Counted from the first letter of the stretch, positions 11,173 through 32,441 are shown. The stretch is 64,000 nt of DNA from an uncultured Gemmatimonadales bacterium (GCA_963842945.1 CAWJIM010000020.1:64001-128000); one strand, 5' to 3'. Made by a program: numbers and translations. The notes: generated by a model from the letters alone, not told the origin.

Positions 11173-12670
11173 ATGCCGTTCGAGACTGCCTTAGCCCAGG
11201 CACAGGTCGCCGGCTATGAGACTCCGCTGCTGGCCATCGCGCTGCGGACGGGGCAAGCTGCCTCAGTCGCTGGACGCACTCGACAAGGGAACCGGCGGTG
11301 CGCTCGCCCGGGTGCTCTCCTCGGGAGACTTCGTGGGCAAAAAGGATGAGGTGGCGGTGTTGTACCCGACAGGGCCGGCCGCTCGGGTGCTGCTGGTAGG
11401 CCTGGGTAAGCCGGATGAGATCGATCGCGCCACCATCCGGCGCGCCGCCGCCATTGCAGCCAAGCGGGCACGGTCGATCGGCGTACCGCGCGCGGCATTT
11501 CACCTGCCGGCCGAATCCCGGGGAAAAGTGGCGCCGGAAGAAGCGGCGCAGGCCATTGCCGAAGGACTGGCGGAAGGCGCCTGGCAGTACAACGAGATGA
11601 AGCGGCGGGATGAGGAGAGCAAGAAACCGCAGCTCGAGCGGTTCGACATCCTGCTGCCCGGCTCCTCCAGTGCTATTCGGGACGGGCAGCGACTAGGCGC
11701 GGCCATCGGGGCAGGGCAGACGCTTGCCCGAGGCATTCAGGTGTTGCCGGGCAACATCTGCACGCCCACCTATCTCGCCAATGTGGCGCGGGACCTGGCG
11801 CAGCGGCACGGTTTCGAGATCACCGTGCTCGACAAGGCGGCCATCGTCCGGGAGAAGATGGGGGCGCTGATGTCGGTGGCCCAGGGCAGCGCCGAAGAGC
11901 CGCGCTTCATCGCGCTGGAGTACAAGGGCGCCGAAGGGCCCCCGGTGGTGCTGATCGGTAAGGGCGTCACCTTCGACACCGGCGGCATCTCGATCAAGCC
12001 GGCCCAGAACATGGAGGACATGAAGTACGACATGTCCGGCGCTGCCGCGGTGCTGGGCACGTTCGAGGCCCTGGGCCTGCTCAAGCCGAAGGTGCACGTC
12101 GTCGGCCTCATCCCCAGCACGGAAAACATGCCAAGCGGGACCGCGGTCAAGCCGGGTGACGTGGTTACCAGCCACCTGGGCAAGACCATCGAGATCATCA
12201 ACACCGATGCGGAAGGGCGGCTCATTCTCTGCGACGCCCTCTCCTACGCCCGCCGCTACCAGCCGGCCGCAGTGATCGACATCGCCACCCTCACCGGCGC
12301 CATCGTCGTCGCCCTGGGACATACCGCGGCGGGGGTCATGGGCAGCGACGAGCAATTGGTGGAAGAGGTGCGCGCGGCCGGAGAAAAGGCGGGGGAGCGG
12401 GTGTGGCCGTTGCCGCTATGGGAGGACTACCGCGATCTGATGAAGTCCGATATCGCCGACGTCAAGAACAGCGGCGGAAGGCCCGCCGGCAGCATCTCGG
12501 CCGGCTGGTTCCTGCGCGAGTTCGTGGATGGATTCCCCTGGGCCCACCTGGACATCGCGGGCACAGCGTACACCGACCGGGAGGAGCCCACCAGGGTAAA
12601 GGGACCCACGGGCATGGGGGTGCGGTTGTTTACCGAGTTTGTTCTCGCCCGTGGCGATAGGAAAGCGTAA
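11173..12670 (+). CDS. pepA: Leucyl aminopeptidase (M17), 5' frameshift
   Basis: GKGVTFDTGGISIK, MKYDMSGAA, NTDAEGRL, DIATLTGA. Confidence 0.95.
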
Positions 12671-18151: not shown

Positions 18152-18840
18152 AGCCGTTTTTCCTGGTGCTTTCTGCGCCGTCAGGCGGCGGAAAAACCAC
18201 GATTGCCAAGATGCTGTTGCAGGGGCGGGAGGATCTCGGCTACTCGGTCTCGGCAACCACGCGGCCCAAGCGCCCCGATGAACGGGACGGCCTGGACTAC
18301 CACTTCCTCTCCCGCGACGAGTTCATCCGCCGGCGCGATCAGGGAGAATTCCTGGAGTGGGCCACGTACGGTGGCGAGCTCTATGGAACGCTCAAGAGCG
18401 AAATCGAGCGGATTTTTGTCAGCGGCCGAAACGCGGTGCTCGATGTGGAGATCGAGGGCGCCCGGCAGATCCGCAAGAACTTTCCGAATTCGCTGCTGCT
18501 CTTCGTTCTGCCGCCTTCGGCCGATGCACTGGTAGAACGGCTGACCGGCCGGAAGACAGAGGATCCCGAGCTGATGCGGGCGCGGATTTACCGGGCGGCG
18601 GACGAGCTCGTGGCGATCGCGGAATACGATTACGCCATCTACAACGAAGATCTGGTCGTCGCGGTTGCCCAGGTCGCCGCTATTCTGGAAGCGGAGTCCT
18701 GGCGAGTGGCCAGGCAGGACACCTTGCCGGATTTCATCGAGAAGCTGCGGCGGGACGTGGTCAAGGCGGCGGAGAAAATTGGAAGGGGTCAGCGAGTCAC
18801 GAGTCACGAGTCACGGACTAGCGCGCGACTCCGCTCCTAG
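18148..18840 (+). CDS. gmk: Guanylate kinase
   Basis: SAPSGGGKTT, SVSATTRPKR, DGLDYHF, FLEWA, YGT. Confidence 0.95.
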   Translation: MKPFFLVLSAPSGGGKTTIAKMLLQGREDLGYSVSATTRPKRPDERDGLDYHFLSRDEFIRRRDQGEFLEWATYGGELYGTLKSEIERIFVSGRNAVLDVEIEGARQIRKNFPNSLLLFVLPPSADALVERLTGRKTEDPELMRARIYRAADELVAIAEYDYAIYNEDLVVAVAQVAAILEAESWRVARQDTLPDFIEKLRRDVVKAAEKIGRGQRVTSHESRTSARLRS

Positions 18841-18883
18841 GCAGTAATTCTGACTCGCGACTCACGACTCGTCGACTCGCGAC
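18794..18883. repeat. Inverted heptamer arrays (GAGTCAC)x3 ... (YGACTCR)n at the gmk/rpoZ junction
   Basis: gagtcac x3 at 18794-18814; tgactcg cgactca cgactcg tcgactc gcgac at 18851-18883. Confidence 0.8.
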
Positions 18884-20310: not shown

Positions 20311-21135
20311 ATGGGAGCGGTATCTGCGGCAGCAGATTGAGCTGGGGGGTGCGGAGGTCGTGGTGTCCACGGCGGGGCGGCGGGGCAGCGGGGCAGCGGG
20401 GCAGGAAGCACAGCAGTGCAGCAGGGCACAGGGCGGTAACGCGGACGAGAGCATCTGGGGCCGCACCGCCGCCTCGCGGTCCCGCTGCCCCGCTGCCCCG
20501 CTGGAAGCAGGGCTGCCCACCCATTCCCGGTCCCGGGCTCGCCGTCGAGTCGCCGAGTCATGTGCTCGACGATGAGCTGGTTGCGCTGGAGACGCTGGAG
20601 GAAGTCGCCGAGCGGATCCGCACGACGCATTGTTGTGCGCTTGTGTCCCAACCGGACCAACGCGGTTCCCGGTGAGGGAAATCCCCGGGCAAAACTCTTT
20701 CTGGTGGGTGAGGGCCCGGGCGCTACCGAGGACGCGCAGGGCCGCCCCTTCGTGGGCCAGGCGGGAAATCTGCTCAACGGCATTCTGGAGGCCATTGAAG
20801 TCCCCCGCGACTCCGTCTACATCACCAACATTGTCAAGTGCCGACCGCCCCAGAACCGAAAGCCCTTGCCCGATGAGATCGCGGCCTGTATTCCATATCT
20901 ACATCGCCAGATCGAGATCGTTCAGCCGAAGGTAATCGTGACCCTCGGGAGCACTGCGGGCGAGGCGATGCTGGGGGTGAGAAAGAGTCTGGGGGAACTG
21001 CGCGGCAAGGTGCACACGTACAACGGTATTCCGCTGGTCGTGACGTATCATCCCGCGGCACTGCTCCGCAACCCGAACTGGAAGAAGCCTACCTGGGATG
21101 ACGTCCGTATCGCACGACAACTACTCGACCGCTGA
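20300..21135 (+). CDS. Family 4 uracil-DNA glycosylase with N-terminal extension (frameshifted)
   Basis: VGEGPG, GRPFVG, NIVKCRPPQNR, TYHPAALLRNP; N-terminus MAGEWERYLRQQIELG. Confidence 0.9.
20372..20503. repeat. Inverted octamer arrays (GCGGGGCA)n ... (TGCCCCGC)n inside the UDG linker
   Basis: Four GGGG units at 20374-20401; cccgctgccccgctgccccgctg at 20481-20503. Confidence 0.8.
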
Positions 21136-30516: not shown

Positions 30517-31401
30517 ATGCCCGAGCTTCCCGACATCACACTGTACCTGGAGCAGCTGACGCCGCGTATTCTGGGCCAGCCGTTGCTCCGCCTGGTTTTT
30601 CGGAGCCCGTTCATCTTGAGGTCGGTGGACCCTCCGCCTTCGGCGTTTGCGGGAAAGCGAGTGATAGGCCTTCAACGGCTGGGCAAGCGGATTGTGCTGC
30701 AGTGTGAAGACGAGCTCTTCATCGTGATTCACCTGATGATTGCCGGCCGACTGCGCTGGAAGCCGCCCGAAGCCAAGACCGGCGGGAAGCTGGTGCTTGC
30801 CGCGCTGGAGTTTCCCCACGGCTCATTGCAGCTCACCGAGGCCGGGAGCAAGCGGCGGGCTTCTATTCATCTGGTGGCTGGGTCGGAGCAGCTGCGGGCG
30901 TTCGAGCGCGGGGGCCTGGAGGTGCTTGACGCAGGGCTCGAGGATTTTGCGACCCGGCTCCGATCTGAGAATCACACTCTCAAACGCGCTCTGACTGACC
31001 CGCGGCTTTTCAGCGGTATCGGCAATGCTTACTCGGACGAGATCCTCCACCGCGCCCGGATGTCGCCACTGACGCTTACCGGCAAACTGACGGATGAGCA
31101 GGTGGCCACGCTGTTCGGCGCCACCCAGGCCACCCTGAACGAATGGACCGAGCGGCTGCGGCAGGAGGCGGGAGACCGTTTTCCTGAGAAGGTCACGGCC
31201 TTCCGGGAGGGGATGGCGGTGCATGGCCGTTTCGGAAAACCGTGCCCGGTGTGCTCCTCTCCGGTTCAGCGAATCCGCTATGCCGATAACGAGACCAACT
31301 ACTGCGCCCGCTGCCAGACAGGCGGGCGGCTCCTGGCCGACCGGGCCCTTTCCCGGTTGTTGAAGCAGGATTGGCCGAGATCGATTGATGAGGTGGAGTA
31401 G
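30517..31401 (+). CDS. Fpg/Nei-family DNA glycosylase
   Basis: N-terminal [21 protein letters not shown] (H2TH), C-terminal C4 zinc finger. Confidence 0.9.
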
Positions 31402-31403
31402 GT

Positions 31404-31444
31404 AGTCGGGAGTCGGGAGTCGGGAGTCAGGAGTCGGAGTCGGG
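31404..31444 (+). repeat. (AGTCGGG)x6 tandem array, left arm of the four-helix-bundle cassette
   Basis: agtcggg agtcggg agtcggg agtcagg agtcgg agtcggg, starting 3 nt after the fpg stop. Confidence 0.9.
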
Positions 31445-31460
31445 AATTCCGAGTTGAAAG

Positions 31461-31835
31461 TCAGGTGGAGCTACACATCCTAGGCCTTTGAAGTGACCGA
31501 ACCAGGCCATTCAGCATCTTGCTTATTATCTCCGAATCTCTGTCTAAACTGGCCCATGTCTCTCTTGACACATAACCCAGATCGCGGGATAGCAGTAACT
31601 GACATTCGATCTCTCTAACCGATCCGCGTGCAATCTTGAGAAAACGGGCCAGCTCACGATCACCCAGACGACCCTCTCCTTCAGCGATATTTGAAACCAG
31701 CGAAACCGCCGCGCGTCTAAGCTGGGCCGCCAGCGCGTAACGCTCGCGATCCGGAAATGAAGCAGTGCAACGATATACTTCCAGCGCGAAGGTGTGAGCG
31801 CGTTTCCATACTGCGAGGTCACGATAGTTTCCCAT
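31461..31835 (-). CDS. Four helix bundle protein (23S rRNA-IVP / TIGR02436-like)
   Basis: YRDLAVWKRA, FPDRERYALAAQLRRAAVSLVSNIAEG, FLKIARGS..E...QL..SRDLGY; antisense to both neighbours, lower GC. Confidence 0.93.
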   Translation of the reverse strand: MGNYRDLAVWKRAHTFALEVYRCTASFPDRERYALAAQLRRAAVSLVSNIAEGEGRLGDRELARFLKIARGSVREIECQLLLSRDLGYVSRETWASLDRDSEIISKMLNGLVRSLQRPRMCSST

Positions 31836-31910
31836 TGCTGAACGGTAGTGATTATGGGGTTTCCTTCGGACATCGTTCTAACGCCCCTCACATCTATTCC
31901 CTTCAGATCG

Positions 31911-31937
31911 CCCGACTCCTGACTCCCGACTCCAGAC
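31911..31937 (-). repeat. (CCCGACT)x4 tandem array, right arm (reverse complement of the left arm)
   Basis: cccgact cctgact cccgact ccagac. Confidence 0.9.
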
Positions 31938-31940
31938 AAG

Positions 31941-31969
31941 TTGACCGCGCTCCCACAGCAGACTAAGAT
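31941..31969 (+). promoter_or_regulatory. sigma70 promoter of secG (likely leaderless transcript)
   Basis: TTGACC-N17-TAAGAT, 7 nt before ATG 31977, no SD. Confidence 0.7.
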
Positions 31970-31976
31970 CACCACC

Positions 31977-32441
31977 ATGTTCACCTTCCTCGTGTCACTG
32001 CTCGCGCTCGATGCGCTGCTCCTCTCGGTCGTCGTCCTGCTGCAGGCCGGCCAGGGTGGCGGGTTGGCGTCGCTCGGCGGTGGTGGAACCGAGACGGTTC
32101 TGGGAAACCGGCAGGCGGTTACCATCCTCACCAAGCTGACCTGGTGGTGTGGTGGCATTTTCCTGGTGCTGTCGCTGGTGCTCTCGTTCGTGCCACGGGG
32201 TGGCAACTCGAGTGCCTTGCAGGAGCGGCTCCGGGCGGCGACGCCCGCCGCGCCGTCGCAGCAGGCTCCGCTCCCGTTGGGTCCGGAGCCCTCAACCGAG
32301 GCTCCCAAGGCGGGCGCAAGCCCGACCAACGCCACGCCGCAGTCAAAGCCGGCCCCGCTTCCTCTGGGCACGCCGTCTCCGGCACCCAAGGCCGGAACCC
32401 CCGCCAAGGGCGCACCGGCGCCCGCACAGCCCAAGCGGTGA
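31977..32441 (+). CDS. secG: Preprotein translocase subunit SecG with Pro/Ala-rich tail
   Basis: VVLLQAGQGGGLASLGGG, LTKLTWW; two TM helices; downstream of tpiA. Confidence 0.9.
   Translation: MFTFLVSLLALDALLLSVVVLLQAGQGGGLASLGGGGTETVLGNRQAVTILTKLTWWCGGIFLVLSLVLSFVPRGGNSSALQERLRAATPAAPSQQAPLPLGPEPSTEAPKAGASPTNATPQSKPAPLPLGTPSPAPKAGTPAKGAPAPAQPKR

Follow-up and report, generated by a model that had tools for sequence, protein, structure and literature searches.

An antisense four-helix-bundle gene between complementary heptamer arrays in a Gemmatimonadales genome: a candidate exchangeable cassette

Between the genes fpg and secG of an uncultured Gemmatimonadales bacterium lies a small antisense gene for a four-helix-bundle (4HB) protein of 124 amino acids, enclosed by two complementary tandem arrays of a seven-nucleotide word, and the locus raises the question of what kind of element such an arrangement represents and what its protein does with the surrounding repeats. 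The element occupies positions 31,404 to 31,937 of a stretch of 64,000 nucleotides (GCA_963842945.1, CAWJIM010000020.1:64001-128000), which was analyzed at its full length and is here termed the window; the genes on both sides are encoded on the plus strand. The protein belongs to the S23p/IVP family (PF05635, TIGR02436), for which a structure has been available since 2006 and for which, to our knowledge, no function is known. The comparisons described below point to a discrete, exchangeable DNA cassette, in which the 4HB gene is carried within complementary 7-nt arrays (arms) and the ring-forming protein likely binds its own word, a reading to which about an even chance of being correct is assigned.

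The arms distinguish the family from its genomic background. The assembly containing the window (G000; 4.3 Mb, 65% GC, 87% complete) has seven PF05635 genes, all of which lie between complementary arrays, and their arm scores, obtained by local alignment of one arm to the other, range from 40 to 61 (47 for the window cassette). For comparison, the scores of 1500 control intervals drawn at random from this genome had their median at 20 and their 99th percentile at 30, and the highest of them was 34. Most resident cassettes own a separate word (AGTCGGG, GGCGGTAA, CGGTAAG and GGGCAGCG, plus more degenerate ones), so that different cassettes in one cell carry different words. Within the genus the family was found in 50 of 61 genomes, and 116 loci were taken (36 from searches and 80 added), 115 of which were scored, the remaining one having too short a flank. 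Arms exceeded the control maximum in 102 of these 115 loci and the control 99th percentile in 107; most low-scoring loci are cut by contig ends, and when both flanks measured at least 300 nt the control maximum was exceeded in 96 of 106. An enrichment of inverted arrays around genes of this family, proposed as a check in the preliminary description of the locus, is borne out by these counts. Across the genus cassettes the median inter-arm distance is 457 nt (interquartile range 438-491), the median number of units per arm is 5.3 and the period is 7, 8 or 9 nt. The arms have a polarity as well: the first arm, on either strand, is G-rich in 96 of the 102 well-armed cassettes, C-rich in five and tied in one, and gene-less array pairs in the genome obey the same G-rich-first rule. 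Since swapping the arms would not hinder the formation of a stem, something beyond pairing appears to be constrained.

The fpg-secG slot is filled in ten genus genomes (G000, G011, G006, G023, G015, G053, G071, G067, G065 and G050; one side is hidden by a contig end in three of them) and empty in five (G024, G008, G016, G002 and G005), and in 19 further genus genomes secG was not found within 1.5 kb beside fpg. Empty slots retain arm-derived stubs or mini-palindromes, for example GAGTCAC followed by GACTCTCGACT in G024, which places the breakpoints in the arrays. On the protein tree the slot copies form one subclade (nine rows; the G006 copy was not placed) and all their words contain AGTC; on the fpg tree the empty lineages are nested among filled ones, and a single ancient insertion that was later lost several times would be the simplest history of the slot. 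The fpg tree joins G000 and G011 as sisters (support 100); their nucleotide identity is about 85% along fpg and about 50% from about 20 nt before the stop codon through the cassette, and their 4HB genes fall on different branches of the protein tree; the G011 copy thus looks as if it had been exchanged for a diverged version. Proteins are at least 75% identical in 110 cassette pairs, and 100 of these pairs had flanks fit for comparison: 28 occupy the same site in the same orientation, four the same site in flipped orientation, ten share one flank and 58 share none, the pairs being non-independent and the counts descriptive. In one pair (L046/L052) the blastn match extends from arm to arm and no further; in another (L111/L118) both flanks are matched and the cassette is inverted between them. 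As judged from these comparisons, arm, gene and arm are inherited together as one block, and sequence similarity among related cassettes begins and ends in the arms. This block is present or absent at one slot, can be inverted between its arms or replaced by a diverged version, and is found in unrelated contexts. The repeat-bounded cassette of the preliminary description therefore holds in its main features: empty and differently filled alleles with breakpoints in the arrays occur at the slot, the gene is not fixed at this site, other family members are armed and flanking inverted arrays are the rule in the family and far commoner than around random intervals.

A few side observations concern individual slot junctions. 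At the junctions of G024, G008 and G023 (L011, L012 and L014), the last arm unit, TCGACT, is found at the expected position of the secG -35 element, about 17 nt upstream of a -10-like hexamer (TAAACT or TAACTA), and an arm remnant may be part of the host secG promoter in these three genomes. G002 holds two fpg contigs, L013 (C223, at a contig end) and L037 (C246); one shows the empty slot, whereas the other runs directly from the fpg stop codon into an AGTCGCG array and breaks off there, which suggests that this bin contains both alleles or two strains. In G005 (L023) the slot has no 4HB gene and contains a short CACGAAGG/CCTTCGTG hairpin, nested in a second palindrome, with a word of the type found around GxxExxY genes, a second cargo family considered below.

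With respect to the enclosed gene, the ratio of nonsynonymous to synonymous substitution rates (dN/dS) was 0.04-0.12 in nine of 11 pairs, the other two being saturated, and by this measure the 4HB gene is under strong purifying selection and its protein is evidently functional. A protein tree with 114 rows has 40 with an arm period of 7 nt, 38 with 8 nt, 17 with 9 nt and 19 in which the period is unclear. The period requires no more than six changes among the 95 labelled rows, and with all four labels 21 changes are required, compared with a mean of 58.5 after shuffling (none of 200 shuffles was as low). The repeat words likewise group by protein subclade on this tree. Rates of change were compared in 30 pairs with at least 70% protein identity, using each cassette once and minimizing word differences over rotations: differences fall on 35 of the 234 positions of the consensus words (15%), as against 68% (mean) for synonymous sites, and unrelated words of equal period differ at 49% under the same minimization. 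Synonymous sites of the enclosed gene thus change about four times as fast as the word.

The window protein matches PF05635 with 123.9 bits (cut-off 33.8, E 3.9e-36) and TIGR02436 with 118.5 bits (cut-off 24, E 1.5e-34), and no further family scored above its curated threshold; the weaker NCBIfam and bAvd matches, below threshold, are to related families. It aligns with PDB 2gsc_A (Xanthomonas XCC0516) at E 9.9e-23 over a region that covers the conserved motif. Entry 2gsc contains five chains, and the structure of Lin et al. (2006) is termed a homopentameric toroid as retold in PMC4990558; by homology to 2gsc, the protein likely forms a homopentameric ring. The family motif is quoted as GxxRxxxSxxxNxxE in PMC3936711, and the window protein carries Q-x2-R-x3-S-x3-N-x-AEG and GS-x2-E. 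Its motif residues R41, S45, N49, E52 and G53 are invariant or nearly so among 14 genus proteins, and eleven columns, including Q38, S45, N49, E52, G53, S72 and E75, are invariant in an alignment of 14 diverse genus proteins; the motif R-x3-S-x3-N-x2-E lies among them.

It is plausible that a pentameric ring of this kind, by homology with XCC0516, would read tandem words in single-stranded DNA or RNA, with roughly one word per ring subunit. Such a mode of reading would account for the clade-specific period (7, 8 or 9 nt) and word and for the conservation of the word next to saturated synonymous sites, and the median of about five units per arm together with a fixed period would fit one word per subunit. 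The weakest step of the proposed mechanism is the one that follows, in which the protein would hold or shield hairpins formed by the arms, and these hairpins would favor slippage and recombination as well as copying by the replication and repair enzymes of the host. Such processes would leave behind the hundreds of arm pairs that share the cassette words but enclose no gene, and the whole would resemble the repeat-plus-helper arrangement of REPINs with a RAYT gene, without a recognizable nuclease.

Gene-less arrays are numerous in the genome, about 300 in all and mostly in inverted pairs. Tandem Repeats Finder reported 101 arrays with a 7-nt period and 139 with an 8-nt period, compared with 16 and 22 at periods of 10 and 11 nt, respectively, and neighboring arrays form 36 inverted versus four direct pairs. 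Most inverted pairs enclose just 20-140 nt, and their loop sequences are unrelated. Four resident cassettes have words to which 159 of the 294 arrays with a period of 7-9 nt correspond with at most one mismatch; the genome's own words match on average 39.8 arrays each, whereas 87 words from other genomes match on average 11.0, and the foreign words with most matches are members of the same word families. The density of arrays was also considered in relation to the presence of the gene, with 0, 0.9 and 4.4 arrays of period 7-8 per 100 kb in genomes without it and 5.6 and 9.0 in genomes with it, but five genomes are too few for such a relation. As a side observation, further gene-less inverted pairs occur in the window itself, at 18788-18883 and 20372-20503; the gene-less pairs seen there are built of GAGTCAC units with a 36-nt loop and of GCGGGGCA units with a 61-nt loop, and single gene-less arms are found near 12667, 14568, 17212, 27418 and 40096.

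Armed homologues are not confined to this genus. A tblastn survey of plasmids with the window protein gave 21 records, 11 of which were examined (ten cyanobacterial and one from Azospirillum); arms scored above the same threshold in eight, two were periodic with borderline scores of 29 and 32, and one had no arms. On three cyanobacterial plasmids (L231, L235 and L238) armed cassettes are inserted between cas6 and cas4 or between cas10/cmr2 and cmr3, with 35-220 nt of intergenic DNA on each side, much of it taken by the arrays; the occurrence of the PF05635 family in cas loci has been reported in PMC3936711. In addition, a second and unrelated cargo, the GxxExxY/PDDEXK_3 family (TIGR04256, PF13366), is found between inverted periodic arms with a word of its own, CACRGAGG, and outer arm ends TCACCAC...GTGGTGA. 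The three GxxExxY genes of the present genome have arm scores of 57, 28 and 121, with clear arms in two of them, and a further copy in G013 (L226, G013:C20, 10928-11480) is armed but frameshifted.

Several findings weigh against a mobile cassette whose protein reads the word. Since a gene and its arms are passed on as one, co-inheritance by itself would group the words on the protein tree, and the slow change of the word could stem from gene conversion against a large pool of arrays with the same word. The cassette at the fpg-secG slot is, by the comparison of relatives, old and mostly inherited vertically; no recombinase or transposase is visible among the open reading frames (ORFs) of its neighborhood, in line with the preliminary description as regards the transposase, and no target-site duplication was seen at the arm ends when filled and empty slots were compared by eye, without statistics. 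We also know of no catalytic activity for this fold. The remaining 135 of the 294 arrays have no match to any resident cassette word. In G044, a genome 97% complete, 13 arrays of period 7-8, including inverted pairs, were found in 293 kb, and PF05635 was not found in it even at E ≤ 1; arrays can thus persist without the gene. Outside the genus, the cyanobacterial plasmid homologues form a separate clade on the protein tree, and the Azospirillum protein, which has an 8-nt word, pairs with a protein that has a 7-nt word. A link of word and protein across phyla was considered and abandoned, since the similar words AGTCAGG and AGTCGGG occur in two phyla with proteins that are not sisters.

The dispersed arrays could alternatively belong to a regulon of the host, in which the 4HB protein would be a trans-acting regulator, the arrays its operators or RNA sites and its own gene self-regulated, mobility being incidental. 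The 159 arrays with resident words would suit such a regulon, as would the paired tandem sites of Geobacter metallireducens that PMC2700814 calls 'predicted global regulator binding sites', and both the link of word to protein and the purifying selection fit a regulator equally well. However, presence, orientation and site of the cassette vary among close relatives and 11 of the 61 genus genomes are without the family gene, which is odd for a core regulon. The spacing of paired arms, ranging from about 20 to 140 nt around unrelated loops, also argues against it, as does the position of the arrays: crude gene calls place 97 of 240 inside ORFs, and the intergenic ones have just a mild bias with respect to flanking genes (19 divergent, 35 convergent and 86 tandem). 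Lastly, the cyanobacterial plasmid cassettes reside inside cas operons. A host regulon is accordingly rated as unlikely.

An excision at the RNA level was envisaged in the preliminary description, which saw in the locus a module similar to an intervening sequence (IVS) of 23S rRNA. In the mechanism demonstrated for such IVSs, applied to this locus, the arms would pair in a read-through transcript, a double-strand-specific RNase would cut the stem and the gene would be looped out with the host RNA unharmed. The architecture resembles that of the Coxiella IVS described in PMC4990558, and a long-range stem of about 23 bp between the arms is predicted in minimum-energy and centroid folds of both strands. 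As for the enzyme, RNase III is near-universal in bacteria. It was not found, however, in the present genome (profiles PF14622, PF00636 and TIGR02191), nor in any of 26 genus genomes, 23 of which are at least 90% complete. A sample of 45 genomes from the class, with single-contig assemblies 98-100% complete among them, likewise gave none, whereas the same search detected it in 14 of 15 genomes of other Gemmatimonadota classes and in bacterial control genomes. This looks like a lineage-wide loss of RNase III in the class, and excision by RNase III is unlikely here because the gene was not found in the class, though another double-strand RNase could conceivably act instead. Moreover, pairing needs neither tandem periodicity nor a conserved word nor the 96/102 polarity rule, and secG has a promoter-like site of its own right after the arm. 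RNA-level excision is therefore considered improbable, and of the IVS-like module only the layout, which is that of an ORF-bearing 23S rRNA IVS, stands. A recognition of the repeats by the protein, which the preliminary description had considered, gains indirect support from the agreement of word and period with protein clades and from the conservation of the word relative to synonymous sites. At this locus the comparisons weaken the idea of RNA excision and strengthen that of a protein reading the word, and the maintenance of cassettes in this class is, on the gene content of these genomes, independent of RNase III. PF05635 is present in 38 of the 45 genomes without RNase III and in six of the 15 others; it occurs in 37 of 40 genomes of the order lacking RNase III and in none of four genomes from three families lacking it, and a tie between loss of RNase III and presence of cassettes across the phylum was dropped, no clean relation being visible in these counts.

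Even less probable is an origin without any dedicated function, in which slippage at hairpin-prone gene ends would create the arrays, the gene would be a passenger in the loop and the word would be kept by homogenization: G044 does have arrays in spite of lacking a recognizable family gene, ordinary recombination should homogenize, flip and delete inverted repeats and no enzyme is encoded in the cassette, but the occupation of loops by two gene families (PF05635 in seven of seven cases, GxxExxY in two of three and once in G013) and the failure of random intervals ever to score as high speak against it, and it would leave the low dN/dS, the clade-specific period and word and the polarity unaccounted for.

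In comparison with known systems, the cassette is closest in build to the ORF-bearing rRNA IVSs and in genome-wide behavior to REPIN-RAYT. The helix-45 IVS of Coxiella burnetii is 428 nt long, carries an S23p ORF in its loop and has a 28-bp terminal stem that is cut mid-stem by RNase III; 5' tandem heptamers vary in number among strains, and the element is termed selfish (PMC4990558). The same source names ORF-bearing 23S rRNA IVSs also for Leptospira, Brucella and Xanthomonas, and its available text does not describe cassettes outside rRNA. The window cassette shares with these IVSs the protein family in the loop, a terminal inverted-repeat stem (about 25-28 bp in the IVSs as described there), tandem heptamers at the 5' end and a similar size (428 nt versus about 530 nt here). 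It differs in lying between the protein genes fpg and secG instead of within rRNA helix 25 or 45, in arms that are whole arrays of a clade-specific word and in a host class in which the excising enzyme RNase III was not found; in addition, the gene lies antisense to both neighbors and is under strong purifying selection, whereas the Coxiella ORF is described as decaying (PMC4990558).

As in REPIN-RAYT systems (PMC3337134, PMC3116915), a single-copy gene is flanked by inverted repeats that are also dispersed as hairpin-forming doublets, several repeat families coexist in one genome, each with its own gene, and inheritance is mostly vertical. In contrast to RAYTs, the window gene encodes a PF05635 four-helix bundle without known nuclease or transposase activity and not a Y1 HUH transposase, and its arms are tandem 7-9-nt arrays rather than a fixed REP palindrome.

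Repeats of the same appearance have been catalogued elsewhere, including the paired tandem octa- and heptanucleotide sites of Geobacter metallireducens (PMC2700814) and convergent GGGAATC heptamer repeats in Xanthomonas (PMC4692102). Both sets consist of three to fourteen 7-8-nt units on opposite strands, facing each other at variable distance, mostly intergenic near gene ends and with tens to hundreds per genome, and they are interpreted there as regulator sites or as G-quadruplex-forming repeats. The main text of either paper contains no mention of a four-helix-bundle gene. The element class is widespread, and the link of gene to repeats is undescribed in the literature searched, as no publication connecting the S23p/IVP gene family to repeat arrays was found among open-access papers and preprints.

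A further relative is Avd, the accessory protein of diversity-generating retroelements, which works with nucleic acid. The window protein matches Avd profiles weakly and below their cut-offs (NF033474, 21.3 bits against a cut-off of 80; PF22296, 22.6 bits). The fold is homologous and Avd provides a precedent for a pentameric ring (PMC10053308). Unlike in Avd retroelements, no template or variable repeat is present at the cassette, and a search of the 87%-complete genome for reverse transcriptase (PF00078) had no match; the statement in the preliminary description that none lies nearby is in keeping with this.

More tentatively, the S23p/IVP proteins might be the missing partners of hitherto unexplained bacterial tandem repeats of 7-9 nt, namely the cyanobacterial heptamers, the GGGAATC repeats of Xanthomonas and the paired octamers of Geobacter. 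The ring of each clade would read one short single-stranded word, with the period set by ring geometry, and together with its arrays would constitute a nuclease-free, self-propagating and RNase III-independent system for the seeding of hairpins. This extension is possible but, on balance, doubtful. Catalogues of short heptamer and octamer repeats exist for several phyla, so far without an explanation, and linking them to S23p/IVP proteins makes both puzzles testable. Should binding prove specific, these small rings would form a natural repertoire of nucleic-acid readers, each for one word, whose period and sequence differ by clade, and the hairpin arrays found at gene ends would, much like REPIN-RAYT, constitute a system of repeats with a helper. 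The present locus adds an element that thrives in a class without detectable RNase III, a word that is conserved relative to synonymous sites and one housekeeping slot with loss, stubs and exchange among congeners.

The features of the locus are listed in Table 1, together with the GxxExxY genes of the same genome.

Table 1. Positions of the cassette, its host flanks and the GxxExxY genes (window coordinates unless a contig is given)
Feature	Position	Strand	Remarks
fpg (formamidopyrimidine-DNA glycosylase)	30517..31401	+	left host flank; profile match
left (5') arm	31404..31446	.	six tandem AGTCGGG units, G-rich on + strand
four-helix-bundle gene (S23p / 23S_rRNA_IVP family), 124 aa	31461..31835	-	ORF translation and profile matches
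75-nt 5' spacer, right arm to ATG	31836..31910	-	
right (3') arm	31911..31937	.	complement of left arm, about 3.5 units
secG promoter-like site TTGACC-17-TAAGAT	31941..31969	+	starts 4 nt after right arm
secG	31977..32441	+	right host flank
GxxExxY gene, this genome	C24:146431-146778		
GxxExxY gene, this genome	C19:168241-168441		
GxxExxY gene, this genome	C18:60365-60574		

The antisense 4HB gene between inverted heptamer arrays, as first described, is confirmed by the sequence itself, ORF translation, profile matches and arm score. Of the copy numbers given at that time, the six units of the left arm were recovered, whereas the right arm has about 3.5 units and not four. The fpg stop codon TAG (31399-31401) is separated by two bases from the left arm, whose units are, in order, three AGTCGGG, AGTCAGG, AGTCGG and AGTCGGG, with one G-to-A change and one unit of 6 nt; those of the right arm are CCCGACT, CCTGACT, CCCGACT and CCAGAC. 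The gene was also said to be richer in AT than its neighbors, in agreement with a GC content of 52% for the cassette interior versus 63.5% for fpg and 70% for secG; at third codon positions the GC fraction (GC3) is 0.50 for the 4HB gene versus 0.77 for fpg and 0.81 for secG. The neighborhood consists of the housekeeping genes pgk, tpiA, fpg, secG and carA, of which pgk, tpiA and carA were named by eye from ORF translations, with no family search behind these names.

The 5' spacer of the 4HB gene has no Shine-Dalgarno-like run and little conservation in an alignment of nine slot orthologues, and a promoter scan called none for this gene. A role of the arrays as terminators was rejected, given that a scan of the locus called no intrinsic terminator and that the orientation bias by crude gene calls is weak. 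None of the PADLOC defence-system models matched the cassette protein (0 families at E ≤ 0.01). In public soil contigs of low depth, most matches are only to the AGTCGGG array and come from other loci, and an apparent excision joint from 31425 to 31911 (16 other letters between, a side of 22) proved to be a short-loop hairpin elsewhere; one DNA contig covers the end of fpg, the left arm and the 3' end of the 4HB gene.

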